32,935 bases of DNA. It comes from Chthoniobacterales bacterium (GTDB lineage: Bacteria > Verrucomicrobiota > Verrucomicrobiia > Chthoniobacterales > UBA10450). A program made the position numbers and the translations under genes. The notes below the pieces were generated by a model. It saw only the letters and a list, made by a program, of their open reading frames with translations, was not told the origin of the DNA and ran no database searches. This document shows, piece after piece, positions 3,797 to 32,935 of this stretch (position 1 is its first letter; every line of letters starts with the position of its first letter). The stretch spans positions 1 through 32,935 of the forward strand of contig JBAQJG010000594.1 of assembly GCA_049300145.1 (NCBI GenBank), given 5' to 3'.

Positions 3797-6700
3797 ATGC
3801 AGGACATTCCCCCCGATACCGTCACCCCGTTTGTTTTCTCCGATCCGGGTGGTAAGCGCTGGCCACGGTTGCGCCTGATCCTGCTCCTGAGCGGAGTGCT
3901 GGTTTTTCTCGGGACAGTGCTTTTTGTCCAAACACTTTTCGTCGCGCCGCAAATGCGGGTGCCATTTTCACTGCGGCAGTTGAAAGGCCAACTCAAGGCT
4001 TTGCAGAAACAAAATCCGGCTGGACAAGTGGCGTCGACCTCATTGCTCTGGCAGAAATTCGGCGCGGCCCGGCAAGCGGCGAAAAAACTCGGTGGTCCGA
4101 CGCCGTCGCCTCCGGCGCGACCGCGAAAAAAATCTCCGATCAACGAAGTACGGCTCGCGTTCTACACCAACGGCGATCCCTACAGCTATGCGTCGCTCGA
4201 GCAGCATGCCGCGCAAATTACTCACGTCTGTCCTGAATGGATGGCAGTCGTCAACGGCCTGGGTGATTTGCAAATCGATGCGGATGCACGGCTGCCGAAA
4301 TTTGCCGCGAGCAGAGGCATCGCGTTGATGCCGTTGCTGACGAATCTGGTGGGAGACACCTGGCAACCGGAAGCGATCGAAAATCTCGCGCACGGTCCGG
4401 CGGATCGACAAGATCGTTTCATTCACAACGTGCTCGCGGCTTTGCGCAATGCCAAGGCGGCTGGGGTCGTACTGGACTGGGAACAAATCGATCCGGCCTA
4501 CAAGAAAGACATCACCGCTCTCATCGACAAATTCGCGGACACATTGCATGACGATGGAAGGGAACTATGGCTCTGTGTTCAACCCGGCCAGGAGCTCGAT
4601 TACATCGACTTCCAGAATCTGGCCGATAATGTCGATCGGTTTGTCGCGCTGCTCTTTGACGAGACCTCCGATATCGATCCGCCCGGCCCACTCGGATCCC
4701 GCTCCTGGTTTGAAGGCTGGCTGCATGTATTGCTGGAAGATTCAGACACGAAGCAATGGATCATCACGCTCGGGAGTTACGGATACGATTGGACGATCGG
4801 CGGAAAGAAAGCAGAACTAATCAGTTTTCCCGAAGCGATGAGCCGCGCCAACAGCGCAGGAGTCGAGGCCGCAGAAGTCACGGCGCCCGGTTACAATCCA
4901 TATTTTTATTTTGAAGACGGGGACAAGGAGCACGCTGTCTGGTTTCTGGACGTGGTCACGTTTTTGAATGAGTTGCGCGAAGTGCGCGATCAAAAGGCAG
5001 GCGGCTTTGCGCTTTACCGGCTCGGTACTGAGGACACGGCGATTTGGGATGCGCTTAATGTGCGCCCCGATTTTAAGATCGACAATCAAACGCGACAGTT
5101 GCTGGAAGTGCTCAAAAGCACGGACACCATCGCGGACGTGGGCGACGGCGAAATTGTCACGGTGGATGAGAGCCGCTCGGATGGGATGCGAAATCTGGCC
5201 GTCGATCATGACGGGTATCTGACGGCCAAATACACAAAATTCCCGGAGTTTCCTACGCTTTATCATCAAGGCGCCGGGGGCGAGCATCAGGTCGCGATCA
5301 CTTTCGATGACGGTCCCGATCCGCGGTGGACACCGAAAATCCTCGACATTTTAAAAGCGGCCAACGTCAAAGCAGCGTTTTTTCTCGTGGGCGTAAACGC
5401 AGAGCAACACCCCGGCCTCGTCCGACGCATTGTCGATGAAGGGCACGAGATCGGGAACCACACTTATTATCATCCGAACCTGGCGCTTTGCTGGCCAGAG
5501 CACGTTCGGCTGGAATTGAATGCGACCCAGCTTTTAATCGAGAGCATCACCGGTCGCGCAACGACATTGTTCCGGCCGCCGTATGCGGCCGATACCAGTC
5601 CGTCACAATTAAGCGAGCTGATTCCACTGCAAATCGCGCAAGACCTCGATTATCTCGTGGTCTTGGAGAACATCGATCCGCAGGATTGGGCAAAACCGGG
5701 CGCCGATATCATCCTGCAGCGCGTGAAGCAACAACGGCGTGATGGCAGCATTATCTTGCTGCACGATGCCGGGGGCGATCGCTCGCAAACTGTCGAAGCA
5801 CTCCCGCGCATTTTGGATTGGCTGCACGCGCGGGGCGACTCGGTGGTGCCGCTGAGCACGCTGCTTGGGACGACGCGCGATGCCGTCATGCCGCCGTTAC
5901 ATGAAAATGGTCAATCGCTTACGCGGCTGGTAAGTAGCACCGGATTCCGCATCTATCATGGGATCGAGGAATTTCTCTGGGCGTTCATGATTGTGGCGAC
6001 GGCGCTGGTAGTGGTTCGAACGCTCGTTGTGATTTGGCTGGCATATTGTTTTCGGCGACAGCCGAAAGCGGATTTTGCGAAGCCGATTAGTGTGGTGATG
6101 GCCGCATACAACGAAGGCAAAGTGATCGCGAGCACGTTGCACGCGCTGCTCAACACCGACTACAAAGGCGACATCGAAGTGATCGTGGTGGATGATGGTT
6201 CGCGCGATGCAACTGCGTCCGAGGTCGAGTCAATCACACAGGTCGATCGGCGTGTGCGTTTATTGCAGCAGGAGAATCGTGGCAAGGCGCGCGCGTTGCA
6301 GCGCGGCCTGACCGCAGTGCGGCATGGCATCGTTGTCTTCATCGATGCCGATACGCAATGTCAGCGCGACACGCTGCCACGTTTGCTCGAACCGTTTGCC
6401 GACGAACGTATCGGTGCGGTTTCGGGCCATGCAAAAGTCGGGAATCTCCGCACTTTCATCGCGCGTTGTCAGGCGCTGGAATACACTTGTGGCTTCAATC
6501 TCGACCGGCGCGCTTACGATCGTTGGAATTGCATTACGGTCGTGCCCGGCGCGATTAGCGCCATCCGCAAGGATGCGATCGATCAAGTGGGTGGGCTCAG
6601 TTTGCAGACGCTGGCCGAAGACACCGATCTCACTCTTTCGTTGCACAAGCATCGGCAACGGATCGTTTACGTGCCGGGCGCGATCGGCTGGACGGAAGCG

Positions 6701-7153
6701 CCGGAAAGCGTGACCACGCTGGCGCGACAACGTTTTCGTTGGGCATATGGTACGTTGCAATGTCTTTGGAAGCATCGCGACATGGTCTTCAACTGGAAAT
6801 ATCGCGCTCTCGGCTGGTTTAGTCTGCCGAGCGTTTGGTTTTTCCAAATCGTCCTCGTGGCCGTCACGCCGATGGTGGATTTGTTTTTGTTTGCCTCGCT
6901 TCCATTTGGCGCATGGCGCGCGGTCATGCCATTCGTGATCACCTTCCTGTCGATGGATGTCATTCTGGCCACGCTCGCCTGCATTTTGGAGCGCGAGCCG
7001 ATCGTGCGCGCCTGGCGGATTTTGCCGATGCGCCTGATCTATCGCCCGATGCTCAGCTATTGTATCTGGAAAGCGATCCTGCGGGCTGTGAAAGGCGCCT
7101 GGGTGAGCTGGGGCAAGCTCGAGCGGACCGCCAGCGTACCGGTCCGAGTGTGA
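3797..7153 (+). CDS. Tri-domain exopolysaccharide enzyme: N-terminal TM anchor + GH18-like domain + NodB polysaccharide deacetylase + processive GT2 synthase (PgaC/IcaA/NodC-like) with C-terminal TM helices
   Basis: 1118-aa ORF. Residues about 117-420 have a GH18-like LDWE motif (AAGVVLDWEQ). Residues about 497-690 are a NodB domain (ITFDDGPDP..EIGNHTYYHP..LFRPPY..ILLHD). Residues about 763-1000 are GT2 with VVDDGSRD, FIDADT, AEDTDLT and QRFRW motifs, followed by several hydrophobic helices. Confidence 0.9.
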   Translation: MQDIPPDTVTPFVFSDPGGKRWPRLRLILLLSGVLVFLGTVLFVQTLFVAPQMRVPFSLRQLKGQLKALQKQNPAGQVASTSLLWQKFGAARQAAKKLGGPTPSPPARPRKKSPINEVRLAFYTNGDPYSYASLEQHAAQITHVCPEWMAVVNGLGDLQIDADARLPKFAASRGIALMPLLTNLVGDTWQPEAIENLAHGPADRQDRFIHNVLAALRNAKAAGVVLDWEQIDPAYKKDITALIDKFADTLHDDGRELWLCVQPGQELDYIDFQNLADNVDRFVALLFDETSDIDPPGPLGSRSWFEGWLHVLLEDSDTKQWIITLGSYGYDWTIGGKKAELISFPEAMSRANSAGVEAAEVTAPGYNPYFYFEDGDKEHAVWFLDVVTFLNELREVRDQKAGGFALYRLGTEDTAIWDALNVRPDFKIDNQTRQLLEVLKSTDTIADVGDGEIVTVDESRSDGMRNLAVDHDGYLTAKYTKFPEFPTLYHQGAGGEHQVAITFDDGPDPRWTPKILDILKAANVKAAFFLVGVNAEQHPGLVRRIVDEGHEIGNHTYYHPNLALCWPEHVRLELNATQLLIESITGRATTLFRPPYAADTSPSQLSELIPLQIAQDLDYLVVLENIDPQDWAKPGADIILQRVKQQRRDGSIILLHDAGGDRSQTVEALPRILDWLHARGDSVVPLSTLLGTTRDAVMPPLHENGQSLTRLVSSTGFRIYHGIEEFLWAFMIVATALVVVRTLVVIWLAYCFRRQPKADFAKPISVVMAAYNEGKVIASTLHALLNTDYKGDIEVIVVDDGSRDATASEVESITQVDRRVRLLQQENRGKARALQRGLTAVRHGIVVFIDADTQCQRDTLPRLLEPFADERIGAVSGHAKVGNLRTFIARCQALEYTCGFNLDRRAYDRWNCITVVPGAISAIRKDAIDQVGGLSLQTLAEDTDLTLSLHKHRQRIVYVPGAIGWTEAPESVTTLARQRFRWAYGTLQCLWKHRDMVFNWKYRALGWFSLPSVWFFQIVLVAVTPMVDLFLFASLPFGAWRAVMPFVITFLSMDVILATLACILEREPIVRAWRILPMRLIYRPMLSYCIWKAILRAVKGAWVSWGKLERTASVPVRV
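4145..5056 (+). other. GH18-like (chitinase-fold) domain of the EPS enzyme
   Basis: RLAFYTNGD..GVVLDWEQI..LGSYGYDW..GGFALYRLGTED. The full DxxDxDxE catalytic motif is only partly retained (LDWE). Confidence 0.6.
5285..5866 (+). other. NodB-homology polysaccharide deacetylase (CE4) domain
   Basis: TFDDGP (motif 1), HTYYH (motif 2), RPPY (motif 3) and LLHD (motif 5). Confidence 0.85.
6083..6796 (+). other. Processive family-2 glycosyltransferase domain
   Basis: The D, DxD, ED and QxxRW signature set is complete: VVDDGS, DADT, AEDTD, QRFRW. Confidence 0.88.
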
Positions 7154-7179: not shown

Positions 7180-7270
7180 GAATGACGAAGGAATGACGAA
7201 ATCGGAATGATGAAGAGCGTAGTCCGGTTGCCCCTTCGTCATTTCAGCGTTTTGCATTCATTCGTCATTT
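7180..7270. promoter_or_regulatory. Array of GAATGACGAA direct repeats (x3) and inverted TTCGTCATT copies (x2) spanning the GH26-like gene start codon
   Basis: Direct copies at 7180-7189, 7191-7200 and 7205-7214 (the last is gaatgatgaa). Inverted copies at 7235-7243 and 7261-7269. aatgacgaagg (7181-7191) can pair with ccttcgtcatt (7233-7243), enclosing ATG 7207. Confidence 0.45.
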
Positions 7271-8361
7271 TGTTTACCATCGCTGGCGGATTAGCCTCGT
7301 GCAAAAAGCCTGGCCTAACGAATGCGCGCATCGATCCAAACGGTCCGGTCGAGATCGTGATTCCGGAACACGGCGCATACACGGGCGCGTTCATGGATTT
7401 CGGTGACGAGGAGGACGACGTGACGCTGGAGATGATCGAGGATTTCGAATCGATGGTCGGCAAACATCAAGCCATCATCGCGTCGTCGAGCTACTGGGGC
7501 GAACAAACTTTTCCTACCGCGAATTTGAATGTCGAGTGGCGGCACGGCTCGTTGCCGCTTGTCTTTTGGTCGCCGTGGGACAAACCGTACGAACAGAATC
7601 GCGGTCCCGATAGATTCAGTTTATTCGAGATCATCAACGGCAAGTGGGACGCGTACATCGACAAGTGGGCTGATGCCGCGCGCGAATTCGGTCATCCCAT
7701 GATTGTCGCTTTCGGTGTGGAGATGAACGGCGACTGGTTTCCGTGGTCAGGCGTTTATTACGGCGGCGACAAATGGGCTGAGGACGAGGAAACTTGGGAA
7801 GGCCCGGAGCATTTCAAGGCGGCTTACCGCCACGTGGTTGACCGCGTCCGCGCCCGCGGCGCATCGAACATCAAGTGGATGTTTCACTCGAATAATTATT
7901 CCTATCCCATGGATACCTGGAATTTTGCGCCGTCTTACTATCCGGGGGCCGAGTATGTCGATTGGTTAGGCCTGAGTGTTTACGGCCAGCAATTCAAAGA
8001 GGAACCAAACCCGGGTATTCGTTCGCTCGTGGATTGGCCGTATCAGGAAATGTGCGGACTCGATCCGAACAAACCGATCATGATCGCCGAATGGGCAACC
8101 GGCGACTTTCCGCACGCGATCGACGAACATGGCGGGATCGGCAAAGCTGAGTGGATCAGACAGGGGTTGGAACTTTTTCGGACGCGGTATCCGCGCGTCA
8201 AAGCTGCAGTTTACTGGCACGAGCGCTGGCAGAACCCCGATCAATCCTATAGCAACTTGCGAGTCAATTCTTCCGTCGAATCGCTGCAAGCCTACCGTGC
8301 GGGCATCGCGAACTCCGATTGGTTAGGCAATCTGATCCTGCGTACTATTCCGAAAAAGTAG
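7207..8361 (+). CDS. GH26-like glycoside hydrolase, predicted lipoprotein
   Basis: 384 aa. The signal peptide ends in the lipobox GGLASC. FGVEMNGDWFPWSG resembles the GH26 acid/base region (HEMNGxWFWWG), and IMIAEWAT fits the nucleophile Glu region. Confidence 0.72.
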   Translation: MMKSVVRLPLRHFSVLHSFVILFTIAGGLASCKKPGLTNARIDPNGPVEIVIPEHGAYTGAFMDFGDEEDDVTLEMIEDFESMVGKHQAIIASSSYWGEQTFPTANLNVEWRHGSLPLVFWSPWDKPYEQNRGPDRFSLFEIINGKWDAYIDKWADAAREFGHPMIVAFGVEMNGDWFPWSGVYYGGDKWAEDEETWEGPEHFKAAYRHVVDRVRARGASNIKWMFHSNNYSYPMDTWNFAPSYYPGAEYVDWLGLSVYGQQFKEEPNPGIRSLVDWPYQEMCGLDPNKPIMIAEWATGDFPHAIDEHGGIGKAEWIRQGLELFRTRYPRVKAAVYWHERWQNPDQSYSNLRVNSSVESLQAYRAGIANSDWLGNLILRTIPKK

Positions 8362-24262: not shown

Positions 24263-24291
24263 TTGACAAATGGACTTCAATCTCATATTCT
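24263..24291 (+). promoter_or_regulatory. Candidate sigma-70-type promoter for the integrase
   Basis: TTGACA at 24263-24268, a 17-nt spacer, then TATTCT at 24286-24291. An AGGTG Shine-Dalgarno sequence lies about 9 nt before ATG 24312. A tandem GTTGAC repeat (gttgacggatggttgac) overlaps the -35. Confidence 0.3.
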
Positions 24292-24311
24292 TTTCGTACA
24301 GGTGTAAAGCT

Positions 24312-25496
24312 ATGCGTAGAACCCGATTGAGAATTATTAAGGCCAGGGTGCGGCGAGATAGTTCTTGGGATCGTTATTATTGTGTGGTCGTCCCGAAACT
24401 TGGCGGCGGCAGGACGCGCCGCTTTTTCAAATTCACGCCGGAAGGCAAACGAGAAGCCGAAACGTTTCTGCAAATTTCCAAGGTCCGGCAGGAGAATGAG
24501 GGAACAGCCGCGCTTTCAATCCCCGAGACATTGCGAATCGAGGCAGTGAAATGCGAACGCTTGCTGAAGCCTGTCAATGCGACGTTGACGGATGCGGTAC
24601 AGTTTTTCCTAAAGCACGCCAAACCCGTCGGCGGAACAAAGAGTTTGGCGGACGCCATAAGAGAGATTCTTGATTCAAAGCGCAGAGCCGGGAAGCGGGA
24701 AAGTTATATTCGGATTCTCGGATGGGTGCTCAATGCGTTTGAGCGCGAGTTTCAAGGCCGGAACGTCAACGAGATCACCCGGCAGGACGTGGAATCCTGG
24801 GTTGATCGAATAGAAAATCTAACAACTCGGAAGAATCGCATCCGCGATTTGTCCATCCTGTTCGATTTTTGCCGCCGACGCGGCTACTGCGGCTCGAACC
24901 CTTTAGAAAACATCGAACGGCCGGTCGTCAGTGGCAAGAGACCCGAAATCTTTACCGTAAATGAAGCCGCCGCTTTGCTGACCACGGCGGAGATTTATCC
25001 AGAGTTCGAGCTCGTTCCGGCGATTGCCATTGGCCTCTTTGCCGGACTGCGAATGTCAGAGATAAAACAACTCGACTGGTGCAACGTGGATTTTGAACAC
25101 CGAGTCATCGATGTTGACGAATCCATTGCGAAGACACGCCAACAGCGAAACGTCGACATGAGTGATTCGCTTGCTGCGTGGCTAACGCCTCACACGCGAA
25201 CGGAAGGACAGGTTATTCCCGCCGGTTTTCGTAAGAAGATGGAGCAGTTGCGCAAGCTGGCCGGGATCACGAAATGGCCCAACAACGGGCTGCGACATTC
25301 ATTCGGCAGCTATCACGTTGCACATTTTCAGAATCCGAATTTGACGGCACTTCAAATGGGCCACGCCACGACTGATATGTTGTTCAAGCACTATAGAAAT
25401 TACCGGATCAGGGAAAAGGACGCCGAAGCGTATTGGAAGCTTGCTCCGGCGGTAACCGGTAAAAATGTGGTGGCTTTTGCAGTTGCAAGTGTGTGA
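24312..25496 (+). CDS. int: Tyrosine-type site-specific integrase
   Basis: The catalytic set is recognisable: R in GLRMSE, HxxR in LRHSFGSY, H in MGHATTDM and Y in FKHYRNY. An N-terminal SAM-like core-binding region is present. An in-frame ATG at 24270 is an alternative start. Confidence 0.92.
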   Translation: MRRTRLRIIKARVRRDSSWDRYYCVVVPKLGGGRTRRFFKFTPEGKREAETFLQISKVRQENEGTAALSIPETLRIEAVKCERLLKPVNATLTDAVQFFLKHAKPVGGTKSLADAIREILDSKRRAGKRESYIRILGWVLNAFEREFQGRNVNEITRQDVESWVDRIENLTTRKNRIRDLSILFDFCRRRGYCGSNPLENIERPVVSGKRPEIFTVNEAAALLTTAEIYPEFELVPAIAIGLFAGLRMSEIKQLDWCNVDFEHRVIDVDESIAKTRQQRNVDMSDSLAAWLTPHTRTEGQVIPAGFRKKMEQLRKLAGITKWPNNGLRHSFGSYHVAHFQNPNLTALQMGHATTDMLFKHYRNYRIREKDAEAYWKLAPAVTGKNVVAFAVASV

Positions 25497-25746
25497 CTCT
25501 CATTGGCGGCGCAACCGCGGGACACACATCGCCCGCGATGCTGTGACGGCATTATCACAGGGCTGTGACCCAGAAACAGGCGGCCGCCTTTTGGAAGATT
25601 GAGCCGCCGAAGATCGATCGGAAAACGATTCGATTTGTTGCCGCTTAGGTTAGTTCCCAGCCGGACGGTGAACACGACGGCGCGCACCTGGATGAGTAGC
25701 CGATTACTTTGTTTTTTGCATGGACAAAGCCGTCTAGACGCATACT

Positions 25747-25758
25747 GTTCAATTGAAC
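25747..25758. promoter_or_regulatory. Perfect 12-bp palindrome GTTCAATTGAAC upstream of the zinc-ribbon ORF
   Basis: Perfect dyad 75 nt upstream of ATG 25833. CTGTGAC half-sites recur at 25540-25570. Confidence 0.3.
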
Positions 25759-25832
25759 ATGAAGGCGAGATTCCGCTCATTTTTGCGGAGGCGTGTGCGG
25801 CGCCAGCGTCCGCGACAACTCGAACTCAATCT

Positions 25833-26048
25833 ATGGCCGAACCGTCAAACACTCTCCGGCAAATTTTGGAAAAAATCCGTGACGACACGCAACAGGCGCT
25901 GAAACTTCTCGGCGATGCCGCGGAAGTGCGGTCGCTCGGATGGAAGTGCAGCGCATGCGGCCACGTGAAGCATTTTACTCGGCCTGTTCTGACTGAAGTC
26001 GCTCGGCCATGCCCGAAGTGCAGAGGCGAGGCGTTTCAAGCGTCGTAA
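25833..26048 (+). CDS. Small zinc-ribbon protein (71 aa), candidate island regulator
   Basis: MAEPSNTLRQILEKIRDD...WKCSACGHVKHF..ARPCPKCRGEAFQAS carries a CxxC...CxxC motif. The longer track ORF from 25599 has an Arg-rich, non-protein-like N-terminus. Confidence 0.5.
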   Translation: MAEPSNTLRQILEKIRDDTQQALKLLGDAAEVRSLGWKCSACGHVKHFTRPVLTEVARPCPKCRGEAFQAS

Positions 26049-26478: not shown

Positions 26479-27420
26479 ATGAAAATTCGCACACGCGTCG
26501 CGTGGCTCGCCACCGCGGCGGTATTTTTATGCAACGTCACGGTGGCAGTCGCCAAAGATATTCCGGGCAGCAAGGATCATCCGCTGCTCAAACGATTCGA
26601 GGGCTCAGAGATCGTGCGCTACAAGGCGGCGCCTTTTGATACACTCGATTTTTACAAGAAAGAGAAAACCAAAGTCACACTTGAGGGACAAATGGTCCGC
26701 ATCGTTTTCAAGGTTCCGGCGGGCAAATCATCCTCTCTTGAGGTTTATCGCAACTACGAAAATGAGCTGAAAGAAAAGGGGTGGGACTTGGTCAATTCGG
26801 GCCCATCAGAGATTGGCGCGTACGACCTTTTCACTCAGCAGGGACTGGCGCTCAACGTTTTCGCCATTGTGCTGCGAAAACCGTTTTACATTTATGCCAT
26901 TAGGCACGATCCCGGCGGCGATGTTCATTTGGCTGTAACGATAGCCGAGGTCAGCCAGGACAATGGCGCCTTTAACGCAGAGGAAGTGATTGCTTCCGTT
27001 GATAGCATTCAGGTCAAAACCGTGACCAACAAGATGGTCGATGGCACTGCGAGCGACATGGCCAAAGAGATCGCCTCCACTGGGCATGTGAATCTATATG
27101 GGATTTACTTCGACTTCGATAAAGCGGACATCAAACCGGAGAGCAAACCGACATTGGACGAAGTTGGCAAGTTATTGAACGGCGATCCGAGTTTAAAACT
27201 TCAAGTAATCGGCCACACCGACAACAAAGGCACGGCCGATTACAACAACAACTTGTCGATGCGCCGCGCGCAATCGGTAGTGAAAGAACTCACCACCACC
27301 TACAACGTCGTCGCCAATAGATTGGAGCCCTCCGGCGCGGGTTTTACTAAGCCCGTCGCCTCGAACGACACCGAGGAAGGACGGGCTAAGAATCGCAGAG
27401 TCGAATTAGTGAAGATGTAA
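26479..27420 (+). CDS. OmpA-family peptidoglycan-binding protein with DUF4892-like N-terminal domain
   Basis: Signal peptide ..VTVAVA|KD. The N-terminal domain is IPGSKDHPLLKRFEGSEIV..FD. The C-terminal OmpA_C domain is FDFDKADIKPES..VIGHTDNKGTADYNNNLSMRRAQSV..GRAKNRRVELV. Confidence 0.85.
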   Translation: MKIRTRVAWLATAAVFLCNVTVAVAKDIPGSKDHPLLKRFEGSEIVRYKAAPFDTLDFYKKEKTKVTLEGQMVRIVFKVPAGKSSSLEVYRNYENELKEKGWDLVNSGPSEIGAYDLFTQQGLALNVFAIVLRKPFYIYAIRHDPGGDVHLAVTIAEVSQDNGAFNAEEVIASVDSIQVKTVTNKMVDGTASDMAKEIASTGHVNLYGIYFDFDKADIKPESKPTLDEVGKLLNGDPSLKLQVIGHTDNKGTADYNNNLSMRRAQSVVKELTTTYNVVANRLEPSGAGFTKPVASNDTEEGRAKNRRVELVKM

Positions 27421-27457: not shown

Positions 27458-29494
27458 ATGAAAGGCAGAATCTGGACAAAGATCCTCTGGCCGATTGCTG
27501 TTGCACTTGTGTTTGTTACCAGCCCTGACTACTCCGTTGCCGAAAGCAAAGCCGAGGCAAAGAAAGCGTGCGAAAAGGCAAAGCAGGAAGTAGACAAAGC
27601 GACGGAAGCAGCCGATAAAGCGCAAAAAGACGCCGATAACTTTATGTCGTCCCCGGCGGATCGGGATGCCGATAAGGCGGATAAGCAGGCGGCCACAGAT
27701 GAGCAAGCTGCCAGGGATGCCCAAGACAAGGCGGACAAGTCTCAGGTCGACGTAAACAACAATGTGCCAGGATCGGCCGAGGAGGCACGAAAGGACCAAC
27801 AGGCGGCGGACAAAGCTCGCGAAAAGGCGCAGGACTCGGAGAACAAAGCAGACGCCGCCGATAAAAAAGCAGACAAAGGCGAAAACAAAGACGATCCACA
27901 CAAGATCAATCGGCAGAAACAAAAGGAGAAGCGCAAAAAGGTCCAGGAGGCGTGGGACAAGTGTCGCAAGTTCAAGCTCGCCGGGTTGATTAGTTTAGGG
28001 CCGCCATCCAGCACCATCGGCGAGTATGTTGTTTCGGCTCAGTTGAGCGTTACAACTCCCGGCACAGGCGAAACCATCGGCCACATTGCCGATCTGGTAG
28101 TTCAGAATCTCACAGATCAACCGATCGCATGCGTGATTCCGCCAATGCTTCTGGAATCGAGCAGCGGCAAGAATCAGACTTACGCCTGTCCGAAACGGCA
28201 GGACGTGGCCCTCAGGCCGCACGAATTGAAAACCGTTCCGATGGATGGCGTTTGCCTGAATCGCAACAAGCCGCCCGTGGCTCCTGGTGTGACGGGCGAT
28301 CTGCAATTGAACGATGGCGGACCAAATGCCGGCCACAGCCATGTTAACCGTAAAGATGCGGACAAGCTGCTTCGACTTTGCGAAGCAAAGTACCAGGCGG
28401 CCGACAAGTTGGAAAAGGACGGTGCTCTCAAAGATTTGCCCTACAAGGATAAGCAGAAGCGCAAAGACATCTGCGTGCAGTGGACCACTTGGAGCGATCC
28501 GCAAATATGCGGGCTCACTGGCGCGCCGCCCGCCACCAAAGAGGACTTAAAGAAAGTTGTTTATAAGCAGGTGGAAGAGCAGGGACCGTTGACCCCGGAC
28601 AAAAAGAAGAAAATTGATCAAGGGATCGATACGATTTTTGAGAAAATTGAGCTGACCAGCAGCAAGGCAAAGGATCTCGAGAAACCGGAAGGCTCGATGA
28701 TTGCCGATCAGGGAGAAACCCCGCCATCGTCGACAGTAGCCAATGTTTCGGACGAAACGCCATCTCCGGCACCGGAGGCCGAGCCTAAAACCGAGACGGT
28801 GTACAACCCTGACGGCTCGACCACGACGACCACTACCGTTTCTACCGGAAACAGCGCCACAACCACTACTGAGACGCAGTATCTCGATGGAAGCAGCAGC
28901 TCGAAAACTGACGTGAAATACAAGAGCGGTGCGACTCTTACGCAGGTTAAAAATCGTGATGGCTCCACAGAGCAAACGTCAACTTCGACGGACGAGGATG
29001 GCACGCAGCGGACAACCGTTACCACCATAGCGAAGGACGGCACGCATACGACCACCACAACCGAGGTGGACAAGGACGGTAACAAAAAAGTCTCCACCAC
29101 ATCGGTGAATAGCGACGGCGTTTGGAACACGACGAGTGAGAAGACAAACATCGACGGCACGAAGGAGAAAACAAGCATCACCGATGACGGTTCGAGCACG
29201 ACGGTGTTCACCGAAAAGGACGGCAACACCGCTACCACGACCACGGACAACGAGGGACACGCCAAGACGAAGACGCCGAAGGGAAGCTACAGCGTAGATC
29301 CCCAGCCTGATGGATCGATGCTAGTCCACTGGAATATCCCTACCGGCACCGGTGGTTCTTCGTCTTATCCGCGCGGAACGACTATTACGCCTAACATCGC
29401 GCCTAACGCAGATCCTAACAACTCGCATCCATTCATCGCCACACCGCCACCGCCACCGCCGCTTCCGAGCGCGGGAGAAGGTAAGAAACCATGA
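27458..29494 (+). CDS. Island protein A1: secreted, K/A/D/E-rich coiled-coil N-terminus + conserved six-Cys core + Thr-rich DG-repeat C-terminus with poly-Pro tail
   Basis: 678 aa with a signal peptide (MKGRIWTKILWPIAVALVFVTS). The core (residues about 195-440) is paralogous to A2. The C-terminus has at least 10 DG(S/T/N) repeats in Thr-rich sequence and ends PPPPPPLPSAGEGKKP. Lies 37 nt after the OmpA-like gene. Confidence 0.8.
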   Translation: MKGRIWTKILWPIAVALVFVTSPDYSVAESKAEAKKACEKAKQEVDKATEAADKAQKDADNFMSSPADRDADKADKQAATDEQAARDAQDKADKSQVDVNNNVPGSAEEARKDQQAADKAREKAQDSENKADAADKKADKGENKDDPHKINRQKQKEKRKKVQEAWDKCRKFKLAGLISLGPPSSTIGEYVVSAQLSVTTPGTGETIGHIADLVVQNLTDQPIACVIPPMLLESSSGKNQTYACPKRQDVALRPHELKTVPMDGVCLNRNKPPVAPGVTGDLQLNDGGPNAGHSHVNRKDADKLLRLCEAKYQAADKLEKDGALKDLPYKDKQKRKDICVQWTTWSDPQICGLTGAPPATKEDLKKVVYKQVEEQGPLTPDKKKKIDQGIDTIFEKIELTSSKAKDLEKPEGSMIADQGETPPSSTVANVSDETPSPAPEAEPKTETVYNPDGSTTTTTTVSTGNSATTTTETQYLDGSSSSKTDVKYKSGATLTQVKNRDGSTEQTSTSTDEDGTQRTTVTTIAKDGTHTTTTTEVDKDGNKKVSTTSVNSDGVWNTTSEKTNIDGTKEKTSITDDGSSTTVFTEKDGNTATTTTDNEGHAKTKTPKGSYSVDPQPDGSMLVHWNIPTGTGGSSSYPRGTTITPNIAPNADPNNSHPFIATPPPPPPLPSAGEGKKP

Positions 29495-29613
29495 CCAGCC
29501 GACCGGCAACTAGTAACTATTCAAATCCTTCCGTTGCAGCCGACGCAAAATTCCAGGCGGTGACGCCCGCGGGCCACTCGATTGTTTCTTCGCCAACCTC
29601 CTTCGCGAGGTGA
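29491..29613 (+). CDS. 40-codon ORF, likely a 5'-truncated remnant of a B-type gene
   Basis: ATGA overlap with the A1 stop and GTGA overlap with the C1 start. Its ..AADAKFQAVTPAGHSIVSSPTSFAR* aligns with the B2 C-terminus TADKRLQIVVAGQPIVLPLTALAK*. At DNA level gcgggcca..tcg.tt..gcc..c.aac is shared. Confidence 0.35.
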   Translation: MTSRPATSNYSNPSVAADAKFQAVTPAGHSIVSSPTSFAR

Positions 29614-29978
29614 AAACGCCCGCTCTTATTTTATCGACAGGAGTCGTCGCAAGCGCGATCATCCTAACGGGCAACGCCTCGGACAAGAAGGCATCATGTC
29701 CCTGCCATCCCTGTACATGTTCGCCGTTGCTCCTACATATGCCGGGTCACATGCTTGTTGGCTGGGAACCGACGCCTGCCGATCACGCCCCGCCCGGATC
29801 GCTCTATTATTTAGAGACGACCATGATCGGTTCGAAAAGTTTTGATGAAGCATTGCGATATGCTTGGAGCACGGTGCAAAGAAACTTGCAGACGGGAGAA
29901 TTCCAAAAGGGCAACGCGTTCCTAATCAAGGTGGCCGATTTGCGCAAAGCTGGCGTTACCCCGCAACCCTATCAGTAG
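29610..29978 (+). CDS. Island protein C1: N-terminal hydrophobic anchor + SCPCHPCTCSP cysteine motif + about 80-aa C-terminal domain
   Basis: 122 aa with a GTG start. Residues 1-39 align with the partial ORF at 32682, with Cys30 in the identical register. HMPGHM follows the motif. Confidence 0.6.
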   Translation: MKTPALILSTGVVASAIILTGNASDKKASCPCHPCTCSPLLLHMPGHMLVGWEPTPADHAPPGSLYYLETTMIGSKSFDEALRYAWSTVQRNLQTGEFQKGNAFLIKVADLRKAGVTPQPYQ

Positions 29979-30016
29979 TGCCGCGTCACCGCCGGCTTAA
30001 CAGCAGGGCCGGACTA

Positions 30017-30034
30017 TTCCTTAAGTTCCTTAAG
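30017..30034. repeat. Tandem 9-mer TTCCTTAAG x2 in a T-rich inter-cassette spacer
   Basis: attccttaagttccttaagttctttcttttcg follows a weak hairpin (ccggc..gccgg, 29992-30012). Possible terminator region for cassette 1. Confidence 0.4.
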
Positions 30035-30081
30035 TTCTTTCTTTTCGTTCGCGGTTCAATTCAGTAAATAGAGCACAGACT

Positions 30082-30112
30082 TCGCGAGCGTCCGGCTCGC
30101 CCACGACAAATT
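30082..30112 (+). promoter_or_regulatory. Island upstream motif copy 2
   Basis: tcgcgagcgtccggctcgcccacgacaaatt starts 51 nt before the A2 ATG and contains the stem gcgagc/gctcgc. Confidence 0.45.
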
Positions 30113-30132
30113 AGAAATCAAAGGTCAACCTT

Positions 30133-31995
30133 ATGAAAACCATCGTGCCCAGAATCATTTTCATCGGCGCAATTGTCGGCGCAGTTCTGATCACAGCGCT
30201 TCCTCAAATCCGCGCGGATGACTTCGATGACGCCGAGAAGGCGGTAAAGGATTGCGAGCAGGCGACAAAGGACGCCCAGGATAACGTGCCTGTGAAAAGC
30301 GTCCGGGATGCCGAGAATAAATTGGATCAGGCGGAACAAAAGCTGGACGACGTAAATTCTAAGACTAATCCGACGGCGACCGATCTCGAAAAAAAGGACG
30401 CCCAAACCGAGCGTGACGACGCTCAAAAGGCGGCCGATGACGCGCAAGCAGCCGGAAACCCGGATCTCAAGGGTAAGTATGATAAGTATCGCGATGCACT
30501 AAAGAGGCGTCGCGAGGCGTGTAAGAAGCTGAAAAAGCTCATTCCCGACCTGCAAGCGCAGGTCAGCAAGCAGGCGCACCATCTTTCCGACAACATTGTG
30601 AACGCACACAAGAACGTGCTTAGAAAGGCTAGTGATTGCGTAAAAAAATGCGGAGAGCCACCAGCGGTGGCGATGGTTATGCCGGGAGTCACCCCCGGTG
30701 GTCCAACACTTGCGTCGCTTGCTTCGACCGGTCGGATAGCGGTTAGCTTCACCGGCACCGGCGAAACCATTGGGCCAGTAGCGATGCTGACGCTTCAAAA
30801 CCTAACCGATGAGCCGATCAACTGCGCGATTCCGCCGATGGTTCTCGAATCGGGCAGCCGCAAAAACCAAGACTACGTATGCCCGAAAGGTCAGAGCGTG
30901 GCAATTGGGCCACACGGGACGGCGACCGTTCCGATGGATGGAGTTTGTGTCAACCGCAGTAAACCGCCGGTCGGTAAAGGCGTGGGCGGAGATTTGGTGA
31001 TGAACGACGGTAATCCAAATGTCCCCGCGAATGCGAATTCCCACGTTTCGCCAAGAGGCGCCAACAAGCTGCTAGGTCTCTGCACTGCGAAGTATGACGC
31101 GGTCGATAAATTGCAGAAAGATGGCACTCTCAAGGATTTGCCGTACAAAGACAAGCAAAAACAAAAGGATATTTGCGTGCAGTGGAGCACTTGGTCAGAT
31201 CCGCGCATTTGCGAAATTACCGGTGCGCAGCCCGCGACCAAAGACGACTTAAAAAAAGTTGTTTACAAGCAAGTCGAAGAGCAGGGACCGTTGACCCCGG
31301 ACAAAAAGAAGAAGATCGATCAGGGAATCGACACCATCTTCGACAAGATCGAGTTAACTAGCGAAAAGGCGAAGGACCTTGAGAAGCCGGAGAGCGAAAC
31401 GATCGCCAACGAAAGCGAAACACCTGCCGCTGGGTCGGCAGTAAACATTTCCAATCAGACGCCAACTCCGGCACCGCAGACGCAGGAAAAGCCAAAAAAG
31501 AAAAAACCAAAACTATCGGGCGACCGGCCCAAGCCGGTGCGGGATTGGTGGGACAAACTATACGCCATGGAAGTGGCCGATGTGAAGAAGCAGCAAAAGG
31601 AAGAGGCCTATACCCGCGAGAAAAACAATTATTTCGATAAAAGCAAACATCATCAAGAGCTGGTAGATAAAGTGAGCAAAATACAGGCAATACTTAGCAA
31701 CCCATTAAGTAAGAACACTGCCGTGGAGAATGACAAATTGATCAAGGAGAGGAATGAGTTACAGAAGGAGCTCGCGAAACTTGAAGCTGACCTAGAGAAG
31801 GATTTTCGGCAGACGGACGAAGGAAAGAAAGCGCTTCAAGAAATGGGTGATGCTCAGCAGGCTGCCAATGATGCCCACAAAGCCGAAGCAGAAGCGGGTA
31901 AGTACATAGACAAGGAGGCGATCGGACACGCGGTCGTGGAGCAACTGCAGAAGAATGCTGCTGACCAAGCGAAGGCGGACCAGGCTGTACCTTGA
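30133..31995 (+). CDS. Island protein A2: secreted, coiled-coil N-terminus + conserved six-Cys core + Lys-rich linker and coiled-coil C-terminus
   Basis: 620 aa with signal peptide MKTIVPRIIFIGAIVGAVLITALPQIRA. The core (residues about 203-448) is paralogous to A1, for example GTGETIGPVAMLTLQNLTDEPINCAIPPMVLES against GTGETIGHIADLVVQNLTDQPIACVIPPMLLES. Confidence 0.8.
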   Translation: MKTIVPRIIFIGAIVGAVLITALPQIRADDFDDAEKAVKDCEQATKDAQDNVPVKSVRDAENKLDQAEQKLDDVNSKTNPTATDLEKKDAQTERDDAQKAADDAQAAGNPDLKGKYDKYRDALKRRREACKKLKKLIPDLQAQVSKQAHHLSDNIVNAHKNVLRKASDCVKKCGEPPAVAMVMPGVTPGGPTLASLASTGRIAVSFTGTGETIGPVAMLTLQNLTDEPINCAIPPMVLESGSRKNQDYVCPKGQSVAIGPHGTATVPMDGVCVNRSKPPVGKGVGGDLVMNDGNPNVPANANSHVSPRGANKLLGLCTAKYDAVDKLQKDGTLKDLPYKDKQKQKDICVQWSTWSDPRICEITGAQPATKDDLKKVVYKQVEEQGPLTPDKKKKIDQGIDTIFDKIELTSEKAKDLEKPESETIANESETPAAGSAVNISNQTPTPAPQTQEKPKKKKPKLSGDRPKPVRDWWDKLYAMEVADVKKQQKEEAYTREKNNYFDKSKHHQELVDKVSKIQAILSNPLSKNTAVENDKLIKERNELQKELAKLEADLEKDFRQTDEGKKALQEMGDAQQAANDAHKAEAEAGKYIDKEAIGHAVVEQLQKNAADQAKADQAVP

Positions 31996-32151
31996 TTTGG
32001 AAGAGCCGACCAAGCCAGCAAAGAAGAACTGTCGTCATGAATGTGAAGTCGGCGATGAGTTCGTCTTCTGATCTGCCAACTCACTTTCTTTGACTTGACA
32101 TTCACGCGGCATCGGCCCAGAATCGCGGCTGATTTAATCTCATAAGTAAGT

Positions 32152-32685
32152 ATGCCGATGAAGAGATCCAATGGCATCGTTGTGCTGTTGATGGTGGGTT
32201 TGGTTGTCGCTCTTTCAGTGGAAGGCGCTCCTCGGGGCAGTGGAAGTTTGACGCCGGTCCGTAATACAACGAAGCGCGGCGCTTACACTATCGAGACAAT
32301 TGGGGACACGTTGCATCAAGCATCGCCACAAAATACACGTCTGATCATTCGCGTTTCTGGTGCTGACAAGAAGCTGATCAAGCCAGATTCAATCGCGCTG
32401 ATCGACAAAAGCGGTGCGGCCATCAAGCCAGTCCTTCGGGAAGACCGCAAGGTCGGTCACGAGGAAAATACCGGCTTACCTATTTCAATCGGCGGATCTA
32501 CCGACAGTTCCGGAGCGGCCGTCAACGGGGTTGGCATTAATTTGAACAAGATCTTGGGACCGCACGGCGATTACGCTTACACCAAGGTCGATTGGCCCAA
32601 GGAAGCCTTCACGGCGGACAAAAGACTTCAGATTGTTGTTGCGGGCCAGCCAATCGTTTTGCCGCTAACTGCGTTGGCGAAATGA
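32152..32685 (+). CDS. Island protein B2: small secreted protein (177 aa), no family recognised
   Basis: Signal peptide MPMKRSNGIVVLLMVGLVVALSVEGA. Composition looks beta-rich. The stop overlaps the start of the next ORF (ATGA). Confidence 0.65.
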   Translation: MPMKRSNGIVVLLMVGLVVALSVEGAPRGSGSLTPVRNTTKRGAYTIETIGDTLHQASPQNTRLIIRVSGADKKLIKPDSIALIDKSGAAIKPVLREDRKVGHEENTGLPISIGGSTDSSGAAVNGVGINLNKILGPHGDYAYTKVDWPKEAFTADKRLQIVVAGQPIVLPLTALAK

Positions 32686-32935
32686 ACGGAGGCGTCTTCG
32701 TCGCTTCGATCACAGTCGGCGCGAGCGTCGTCATTTTGGCGGGAGGCGCGTTCGCTAGAACATCGTCTTGCCCATGTAATCCGTGTACCTGTTCGCCTTG
32801 CACATGTGGCGTCGGCAAGAGCGGGCATAGTAGCCCTACCAAGACCGAAACTGGCAAAACCGAGCCCAAACATCATGAGGTAAGCAAGGAGAGGGACCAT
32901 GAAAGGGGCCACGGGCATGCCGGAGTCGGAGTCAA
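32682..32935 (+). CDS. Island protein C2 (partial, runs off the window end): hydrophobic anchor + SCPCNPCTCSPCTC motif + His/Lys/Glu-rich region
   Basis: This ORF is not in the supplied track because it has no stop. It reads ATG 32682: MNGGVFVASITVGASVVILAGGAFARTSSCPCNPCTCSPCTCGVGKSGHSSPTKTETGKTEPKHHEVSKERDHERGHGHAGVGV.., and is homologous to the C1 N-terminus. Confidence 0.6.
   Translation, partial: MNGGVFVASITVGASVVILAGGAFARTSSCPCNPCTCSPCTCGVGKSGHSSPTKTETGKTEPKHHEVSKERDHERGHGHAGVGV

Follow-up and report, generated by a model that had tools for sequence, protein, structure and literature searches.

A six-cysteine cluster at the predicted mature N-terminus of an undescribed family of exported proteins in Chthoniobacterales

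The DNA analysed here is contig JBAQJG010000594.1 of the Chthoniobacterales bacterium assembly GCA_049300145.1 (forward strand, positions 1 to 32,935); this whole stretch of 32,935 nucleotides (nt) is referred to as the window. Two of its genes, C1 and C2, encode a cysteine motif shortly behind an N-terminal hydrophobic leader. C2 belongs to an undescribed family of small proteins of soil Verrucomicrobiota (Chthoniobacterales/"Candidatus Udaeobacter") that are predicted to be Sec exported and mostly disordered, and in C2 the motif is part of a cluster of six cysteines. C1 is probably a chimeric, truncated copy that is still coding. The cysteine cluster is, as a module, of a known kind; it is the protein family and its gene cluster that are undescribed, and a literature search found no description of either. 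The reading that we tentatively favour is that the six cysteines and the neighbouring His tract form a metallothionein-like thiolate cluster, although our confidence in it is limited.

C1 and C2 share the sequence SCPCxPCTCSP, the first Cys being residue 30 in both proteins, as the original prediction had stated; the range given there for C1 excludes the leading Ser (29694-29696) and starts at the TGT codon of Cys30 (29697). C1 reads MKTPALILSTGVVASAIILTGNASDKKAS, CPCHPCTCSP, and LLLHMPGHM, in that order. C2 reads MNGGVFVASITVGASVVILAGGAFARTSS, the cluster CPCNPCTCSPCTC, and GVGKSGHSS and ends with KHHEVSKERDHERGHGHAGVGV, so that its layout comprises a leader (amino acids [aa] 1 to 25), an AFA|R site, the six-Cys cluster, a Gly/Lys/His-rich linker, and the start of a GVGV anchor motif. 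The gene is cut by the end of the contig, and no contig of other runs reaches past position 32935. In the six-frame translation of the window, CxCxxCxC has three overlapping matches, all confined to C1 and C2. Simulations with a dinucleotide model gave a mean of 0.04 matches per window, and two or more matches were obtained in 0 of 400 runs. BLASTP aligned C1 with C2 with 19 identities in 40 positions (E = 4e-11 in a single comparison). In 8 of the 11 motif codons, C1 and C2 differ only at synonymous third positions, and in 14 family DNA sequences TGT and TGC interchange freely in every Cys column while the residue stays Cys. Together, these two patterns indicate that the reading frame is, or was, under selection at the protein level.

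The original prediction described the two proteins as otherwise divergent. However, their leaders are homologous over residues 1 to 39, and the colinear block in which they lie extends upstream into the end of the preceding gene. The block around the start of C1 holds the last ~44 nt of a gene of the type that precedes C2 (encoding a ~175-aa protein; 177 aa in the window), an overlapping stop and start (GTGA at C1, ATGA at C2), the leader, and the first two CxC units. Its upstream 46 nt are 70% identical between the two copies, a level equalled by 12 of 200,000 random 47-mers taken from the window. The N-termini of C1 and C2 are thus judged from their sequences to be homologous and not convergent. 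The upstream end of the block falls in a 40-codon open reading frame (ORF), whose end (AGHSIVSSPTSFAR) aligns at the DNA level against the end of the 177-aa gene (AGQPIVLPLTALAK), and the 3' end of this ORF is likely a remnant of a 175-aa-type gene. BLASTP of the ORF product against the 177-aa protein gives no alignment, so the remnant assignment is drawn from the DNA match.

Beyond the block, C1 departs from the family. Its likeness to the family is limited to residues 1 to 39 (tblastn against all related loci), the third unit of the family, TGY ACN TGY, is replaced by TTG CTC CTA (Leu-Leu-Leu), and no frameshift brings back family sequence. A word-indexed search of 5.8 billion proteins with the whole of C1 returned only the 79-aa gene call of the window itself, and tblastn with the tail gave no match in the related loci. 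After residue 39, C1 matches nothing, in line with the earlier remark that the downstream sequences are unrelated, but C1 and C2 are not independent proteins with a motif gained by convergence. The codon score of the tail (0.228) is close to that of 246-nt windows of real genes (0.254 ± 0.113) and is the best of the six frames. The tail could be an orphan, or a de novo gene segment joined to a borrowed signal peptide. A related strain from another soil metagenome (run X2; 90 to 95% identity) matches window positions 29992 to 32637 and is dissimilar to the left of 29992, which indicates that the C1 segment is strain variable and absent at that position there.

C1 is therefore not a full member of the C2 family, and the question is whether its motif still has a role. 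C1 could be a pseudogene fragment left by rearrangement, with a decaying motif, any real gene starting at Met44, and C2 as the sole functional protein; we regard this as a serious possibility, if a somewhat doubtful one. It would account for the end of the homology at residue 39, the Leu-Leu-Leu in place of the third CxC unit, the shrinkage of the upstream 175-aa-type gene to ~44 nt, and the absence of segment 29610-29978 from this position in the closely related strain, and the gene caller of the database does start C1 at Met44, omitting the motif. The synonymous differences from C2 may date from a time when both ancestors were intact genes. However, no stop interrupts the frame that links the GTG codon, the motif, and the tail, whose codon usage is gene-like; the stop/start overlaps are intact from the 678-aa gene to the 40-codon ORF and from there to C1; and a leader with four cysteines could still direct export and provide a reduced Cys site. 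A chimeric copy that is still coding is the reading that we retain as the probable one for C1.

The C2 family was reached through the neighbouring 620-aa protein, which lacks a Pfam domain but has over 200 homologues in metagenomes, and through the contigs of these homologues, on which a small gene with the same cluster adjoins a homologue of the 177-aa gene. A search of 185,579 GTDB species with the 177-aa family as the anchor yielded 14 loci, of which 12 have records titled Verrucomicrobia, Verrucomicrobiae, Chthoniobacterales, or "Ca. Udaeobacter"; the other two are short contigs (L012 and L018) titled Alphaproteobacteria and Bryobacteraceae, which we take for mis-binned pieces. At 12 of the 14 loci, a C2 relative is the next gene after the 177-aa homologue, usually with overlapping stop and start codons, and the C2 gene is predicted to be translationally coupled to the gene of the ~175-aa protein, which has a putative immunoglobulin (Ig)-like fold.

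A profile built from 16 N-termini (C2 and 15 aligned members) gave 157 matches, and the counts of Cys forms given here cover the best 120 of them. The members are 120 to 400 aa long, and all have an N-terminal hydrophobic leader. In all of them the leader ends in an AxA-like site; a linker of low complexity, a tract rich in His, and the motif GVGVGVNVDLGGVGQR..E[AP]DPF are also shared, with NPF..V.LTG..AK farther on. Among these 120 members, 41 carry the six-Cys cluster C[PTS]C[SN]PC.C[SGA][PVTA]C[THSA]C followed by Gly, which bears out the conservation in other genomes on which the original prediction had staked its claim. A single Cys in a Pro-rich, hinge-like context (AQTTPCPPGGGG / AFAQTTPCPPGGGG) is found in 19 members and a single Cys directly after the leader (ALACGPGG, VFGGCGG) in 8, and the remaining 52 have no mature Cys (AFAQTTPYPPQ and others).

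The cluster begins 4 to 5 residues past the AxA site ([AF]A|[KR][TP]A[SGA]C). In the 40 six-Cys members that bear the anchor motif, the mature part has exactly six Cys, with ~0.2 Cys elsewhere or after the anchor. The number of CxC units is fixed at three, and the x residues vary over 19 cluster variants and are limited to P, T, S, K, N, G, A, and H. In 11 of the 41 clusters the last unit is CHC, with His in place of Thr. The mature proteins consist of 84% G/S/T/K/E/P/Q/H/D/N/R/A and 2% aromatic residues, and His-rich tracts precede the GVGVG anchor family-wide; in the shortest members (P0171, P0187, and P0212), GGGHH[DE]H follows the cluster directly. At locus L003 the units are CTCSP-CTCSP-CTC, and the cluster resembles a tandem pentapeptide, (CxCxP)2-CxC, from which we infer a possible origin by 15-nt duplication. 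In L001 (5026-5508, 5557-7053, and 7688-8548), for example, the motif DPF..V[EK]LTG[EK][KQ]AK is common to the C2 family and to the C-terminal tails of the core-domain and secretin-core proteins described below, and FEKVELT..KAKDLE.PD is present in L003 8933-9922; the sharing of the former motif suggests a common docking partner.

The N-terminal hydrophobic stretch of C1 and C2, for which either a leader or an anchor had been proposed, is present as described. In C2 it closes with an AxA-type site (AFA|R), and it resembles a Sec signal that is cleaved off more than it does an anchor. We propose that a six-Cys member of the C2 family would be exported through this Sec-type leader and cut at the AxA site, and that the mature protein would present, 4 to 5 residues later, its six Cys as three CxC units (CxCxP-CxCxx-CxC), followed by a Gly run and the His-rich tract. 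The six thiolates, aided by the nearby His residues, could hold a soft-metal cluster of Cu(I) or of Zn(II)/Cd(II), and a flexible tether would connect this metal-binding head to a complex in the envelope. The metallothionein-like reading is favoured because CxC units, small polar spacers, and the lack of aromatic residues are hallmarks of metal-thiolate sites and because CxCxPCxC is the first ligand block of the metallothionein SmtA and CxCxxCxC that of Pseudomonas metallothionein, in agreement with the metallothionein-like spacing proposed at the outset. The CxCxxCxC block is present in SmtA (PDB 1JJD; TSTTLVKCACEPCLCNVDP), Pseudomonas metallothionein (PDB 6GV7; LRCGCPDCHC), C1 (CPCHPCTC), and C2 (CPCNPCTC). 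The reading is also favoured by the His in the last unit of some clusters, by the GGGHH[DE]H that abuts others, and by a certain His enrichment; the His-rich neighbourhood noted in the original prediction has turned out to be a feature of the C2 family. Finally, independent small metagenome ORFs with the same string look like metallothioneins, and exported thiolate Cu proteins exist, such as Csp1 (PMC7558416).

Several points weigh against this assignment. There was no match to any metallothionein family in Pfam at E <= 10 for eight six-Cys members and two isolated cluster peptides; C1 and C2 had no match of any kind in Pfam at E <= 0.1, and the mature part of C2 had none among PDB sequences. 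The Sec-type leader would take the protein into an oxidising compartment, where cysteines in even numbers are usually paired as disulfides; moreover, Cu sites in the periplasm mostly rely on Met and His. With one Cys or none at the cluster position in 79 of the 120 relatives, the cluster is dispensable. The His enrichment is modest (4.25 His in the 30 aa before the anchor in six-Cys members versus about 3.0 in the others). No conserved metal-homeostasis, thiol-oxidoreductase, or maturase gene was found in the 10-kb flanks of five related loci (L001, L002, L003, L258, and L260). When transcripts were sought, only soil DNA runs contained the sequence. The exported precedent, Csp1, uses the twin-arginine translocation (Tat) pathway (PMC7558416), versus a Sec-type leader in the C2 family.

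The main rival of a metal-thiolate cluster is a disulfide module, in which the exported cysteines would be oxidised, either as an N-terminal three-disulfide knot or as interchain disulfides that bind the protein to further copies of itself or to partners in the envelope. The heat-stable enterotoxin STa core, with six Cys in 13 residues, forms such a three-disulfide knot, and the hinge of immunoglobulin G (CPPCP) forms interchain disulfides. The Sec-type leader with its AxA site places the cluster outside the cytoplasm, the Cys number is even and fixed, and the neighbouring core-domain proteins keep a Cys pair in their predicted beta-sandwich (in 38 of the 41 scored), as expected in a disulfide-forming compartment. 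Outer membrane components also occur at the locus: related loci encode a secretin domain, and the window encodes an OmpA-like protein. The hinge-like relatives are better explained in this way, as a single Cys allows an intermolecular bond but not a metal cluster, and the chlamydial OmcA/OmcB, Cys-rich proteins of the envelope that are linked by disulfides, provide a precedent in the Planctomycetes-Verrucomicrobia-Chlamydiae (PVC) superphylum (PMC2811131). However, one-residue CxC spacing, small polar spacers, and an adjoining His-rich tract are more typical of metal-thiolate sites. The 52 relatives without mature Cys show that cross-linking cannot be essential to the family, the 175-aa partner has no conserved Cys to bond with, and the flanks of the five loci contain no conserved thiol-disulfide oxidoreductase. 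On balance, we consider a disulfide module possible but rather unlikely.

Lipidation was also proposed at the outset. In this reading the first Cys would be the +1 residue of a non-canonical lipobox, and the protein would be a pilotin-like outer membrane lipoprotein that is encoded beside a secretin gene and tethered by its Gly run. The two residues ahead of the first Cys (-2/-1) invariably fit an [AS][GAS]-like pattern (TASC, PAGC, TAAC, TSSC, KASC), some relatives combine a better lipobox with a single Cys (VFGGC, ALAC, AFGSC), and the Gly-rich stretch that follows is like lipoprotein tethers. In L001, L002, L008, and L258 the C2-family gene lies directly ahead of a secretin-domain gene. For OmcA of Chlamydiae, lipoprotein status is proven despite predictors that favour a signal peptidase I (SPase I) site (PMC2811131). 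However, the lipobox consensus [LVI][ASTVI][GAS]C is absent from C1 (GNASDKKAS|C) and C2 (GGAFARTSS|C), and the six-Cys members mostly read [AF][AG][KR][TP]A[SGA]C; the only relatives that show it are a few with a single Cys (VFGGC). Lys or Arg occupies -4 or -5 (-4 in most) in C1, C2, and nearly all six-Cys members, -3 is T, P, or K instead of L, V, or I, and a canonical AxA site lies 4 to 5 residues upstream. In the 52 relatives without Cys, cleavage must be by SPase I, with AFA|Q as the homologous site, and lipidation would leave five further invariant Cys unexplained. We regard it as very improbable for the six-Cys members.

Two other candidates were rejected. The notion of a Cys-rich core awaiting modification, as in the precursor of a ribosomally synthesized and post-translationally modified peptide, was dropped because no radical SAM, YcaO, LanM, or similar maturase was found in the window, as had already been noted, or within 10 kb in the same five loci, and because the Cys block belongs to a 120- to 400-aa protein behind a Sec-type leader. 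A c-type cytochrome haem site was rejected as well, CxxCH (C[SG].CH) being present in only 11 of the 41 clusters and in neither C1 nor C2.

Table 1. Positions in the window of C1, C2, their parts, and the neighbouring genes (assignments predicted from sequence)
Feature	Position	Strand	Description
Tyrosine recombinase/integrase	24270..25496	+	Left edge of cassette region
678-aa paralogue	27458..29494	+	Same core domain as 620-aa protein (62% identity over 288 aa); Thr-rich C-terminal region
40-codon ORF	29491..29613	+	ATGA overlap with stop of 678-aa gene; GTGA overlap with start of C1
Duplicated block	29569..29730	+	~165 nt, colinear with 32641-32802 without indel; two high-scoring segment pairs on one diagonal
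C1	29610..29978	+	GTG start, 122 aa; family leader and truncated cluster (aa 1-39) fused in frame to orphan 82-aa C-terminal part
C1 truncated cluster CPCHPCTCSP	29697..29726	+	Two of three CxC units; SCPCxPCTCSP motif minus leading Ser
C1 orphan C-terminal part, 82 aa	29730..29978	+	Without homologue; gene-like codon usage
620-aa secreted protein	30133..31995	+	Core domain at about aa 190-450: predicted beta-sandwich and helical bundle
177-aa secreted partner	32152..32685	+	Stop overlaps C2 start (ATGA); predicted Ig-like beta-sandwich
C2	32682..>32935	+	ATG start; 84 codons, 5' part of gene cut by contig end
C2 six-Cys cluster CPCNPCTCSPCTC	32769..32807	+	Cys30 at 32769; three CxC units, Pro after first two
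C2 low-complexity linker	32808..32921	+	Holds His/Lys/Glu-rich tract KHHEVSKERDHERGHGH
Start of family motif GVGVGVNVDLGGVGQR..E[AP]DPF in C2	32922..32933	+	Only GVGV visible before contig end

Positions of the features are given in Table 1. The genes around C2 form a cassette of three families, and no cassette protein was recognised by Pfam, NCBIfam, PADLOC, or PHROGs; searches of PDB sequences with profiles of the three families also gave nothing meaningful. The 177-aa partner has 24 representatives among 1.84 billion proteins. Its model (predicted local distance difference test score [pLDDT], 79.7) gave generic Ig-like Foldseek matches in the PDB and a match to DUF4426 at E of about 0.01; the nearest bacterial structure is the DUF4426 protein PA0388, a weak match. 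Invariant His/Glu motifs in this family are TLHQ, REDRKVGHEENTGLP, and HGDYAYTKVDWP. The core domain of the 620-aa protein spans ~290 aa and is modelled by AlphaFold2 as a beta-sandwich with a helical bundle (pLDDT, 88.6), for which Foldseek returned only weak, generic beta-sandwich matches in the PDB (best E = 0.05). The weak or generic matches of both models mean that the folds give no functional lead. The core-domain signature is GTGETIGHIADL..QNLTDQP..DGVC.NR..KYDAADKLQKDG..VQWSTW..KKVVYKQVEE. For two extra Cys in the helical part, covariation was examined as a hint at a disulfide and was not clean.

Each locus has two to five core-domain paralogues with variable N- and C-termini (also L001 5557-11848 and L002 4868-11797), and in some loci the core domain is joined to the C-terminal side of a minimal secretin domain, the place of the S-domain in ordinary secretins. 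The secretin domain (PF00263) scored 38.8, 37.5, and 30.2 bits in L001, L002, and L258, respectively (cutoff, 27.5). A C2-family gene always comes after a gene of the 175-aa type and has core-domain genes beside it. Two gene orders were found: (i) the 175-aa gene, the C2-family gene, the secretin-core fusion, and more core paralogues in L002, L008, L010 (the L001 contig), and L258; and (ii) a core-domain gene, the 175-aa gene, and the C2-family gene in L003, L005 to L007, L011, L013, L260, and the window. The large contigs that bear the system are 1.7 to 2.3 Mb long. In the 678-aa protein of the window, the C-terminal third (28750-29400) contains a long Thr-rich region with DG[ST]..TTTT-like repeats (DGSTTTTTTVSTGNSATTTTE..DGTHTTTTTEVDKDG), and DGSTTT-like segments also occur in the N-terminal parts of paralogues in L001, L002, and L003. 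Directly upstream of the 678-aa gene lies a gene for an OmpA-family peptidoglycan-binding protein (26479-27420) with a weak DUF4892-like N-terminal part, which is absent from this position in other loci.

The cassette region of the window starts at the recombinase gene, followed by a Zn-ribbon-like ORF (25599-26048), and a resolvase lies beside a similar cassette array in L003 (2479-3117). It may be that the additional cassettes belong to a region that is variable or mobile; no tRNA was found in the window. Farther upstream, the window encodes a 1,118-aa multidomain protein (3797-7153) with glycoside hydrolase family 18 (GH18)-like, polysaccharide deacetylase, and family-2 glycosyltransferase (chitin-synthase-like) parts and, next to it, a GH26-like protein (7207-8361).

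A DNA pattern of CxCxPCxCxPCxC scanned over metagenome contigs matched at least 120 stretches. Among the matches listed, the C2 family is represented by L032 and L112 only, most are simple-sequence DNA read in a Cys/Pro frame, and a few are small metallothionein-like ORFs; given the preponderance of simple-sequence matches, the pattern alone is not diagnostic. A looser pattern run on viral contigs found no C2-family member. The matches listed include short ORFs with CxCxPCxCxPCxC (MTTKVNVCKCNPCTCNPCKCKGTK, MSSTQRCDSKQCNCDPCNCDPCNCKPCDCC; L026, L058, L086, L102, L134, and L137), which are candidate unannotated metallothioneins. An 86-aa ORF on an unrelated metagenome contig (L082 3531-3791) has the canonical lipobox LFVAAC and 24% Cys and contains CKCNPCTCNPCVC. 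It is predicted to encode an exported, lipoprotein-type metallothionein-like protein, and its neighbours, by ORF translation, are sugar-modifying enzymes and not metal genes.

Cys-rich metal sites are classically cytosolic, and a conserved CxC-type cluster right after a signal peptide would widen the range of places where bacteria use thiolate chemistry. Soil bacteria of the "Ca. Udaeobacter" type are abundant, uncultured, and small genomed. The surrounding genes form a conserved multiparalogue envelope system without a match in the four annotation resources named above, with two high-confidence models that have no significant PDB match, and the system is restricted to Chthoniobacterales/"Ca. 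Udaeobacter" if the titles of L012 and L018 are taken as mis-binning. Members with six, one, or no Cys provide a natural control series. If the cluster is only a disulfide cap, the finding shrinks to the annotation of a new family. At the speculative end, and in our estimate unlikely, the six-Cys/His-rich head could be the active part of a so far undescribed envelope apparatus that only this lineage has, made up of the Ig-like 175-aa protein, the disordered C2-family protein, and the fold-novel core paralogues, one of them fused to a minimal secretin. Such heads would then be metallothionein-like modules of a class without precedent, Sec exported and tethered, that capture metals or carry out redox chemistry on the outer membrane of a lineage that ranks among the most abundant uncultured ones in soil.

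Among known systems, SmtA/BmtA (PF02069) have an N-terminal block with identical spacing, and SmtA shares the Pro as well (KCACEPCLC, versus SCPCNPCTC here); further common traits are small polar spacers, a block without aromatics, and His alongside Cys. In SmtA, C-terminal Cys and His ligands complete a cluster of the Zn4Cys9His2 type around a zinc-finger-like fold; its ligand set is Cys9His2 (PMC10119931). In contrast, the C2 family has neither a zinc-finger-like fold nor a C-terminal Cys/His ligand set, but six Cys in 13 residues and no others. Also, its members are exported and carry the cluster as one module of a 120- to 400-aa disordered protein, whereas SmtA/BmtA are free 55-aa cytosolic proteins. 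With no profile match, no second ligand set, export, and a position within a long disordered protein, membership in the BmtA/SmtA family was rejected.

Plant type 1/2 and fungal metallothioneins are built of repeated CxC units. Three such units in ~15 residues, as in the C2 family, would be enough for an M(II)2Cys6 or a Cu(I)4-6 thiolate cluster. However, the spacers here are of two residues and contain Pro (three residues in the plant and fungal proteins), and the protein is bacterial, exported, and fused to a long non-Cys part.

Like the C2 family, OmcA (with OmcB) comes from the PVC superphylum and is a small exported protein that is Cys rich right after the leader, with a likely envelope location and a weak SPase II site that has to compete with an SPase I site (PMC2811131). 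However, OmcA has a structural role, through cross-links by disulfides, in an organism that makes little peptidoglycan, whereas the Cys cluster is optional in the C2 family, the remainder of which is His/Gly/Lys rich and disordered; eight C2-family members had no Pfam match of any kind at E <= 10. With the secretin pilotins (PulS/OutS, MxiM, and PilF class), the C2 family shares a small exported protein whose gene directly precedes one with a secretin domain (in L001, L002, L008, and L258). However, the six-Cys members lack a canonical lipobox and a folded pilotin domain, and in seven other loci and the window the core-175aa-C2 order has no adjacent secretin gene.

Csp1 differs in being a folded four-helix bundle that is exported by Tat and binds 13 Cu(I) per monomer, whereas the C2 family has a Sec-type leader and an unstructured 13-residue cluster without a helical bundle. 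However, Csp1 is likewise an exported bacterial protein that holds Cu(I) on many Cys thiolates (PMC7558416), and since it does so outside the cytoplasm, a periplasmic thiolate site such as the one proposed for the C2 family is feasible.

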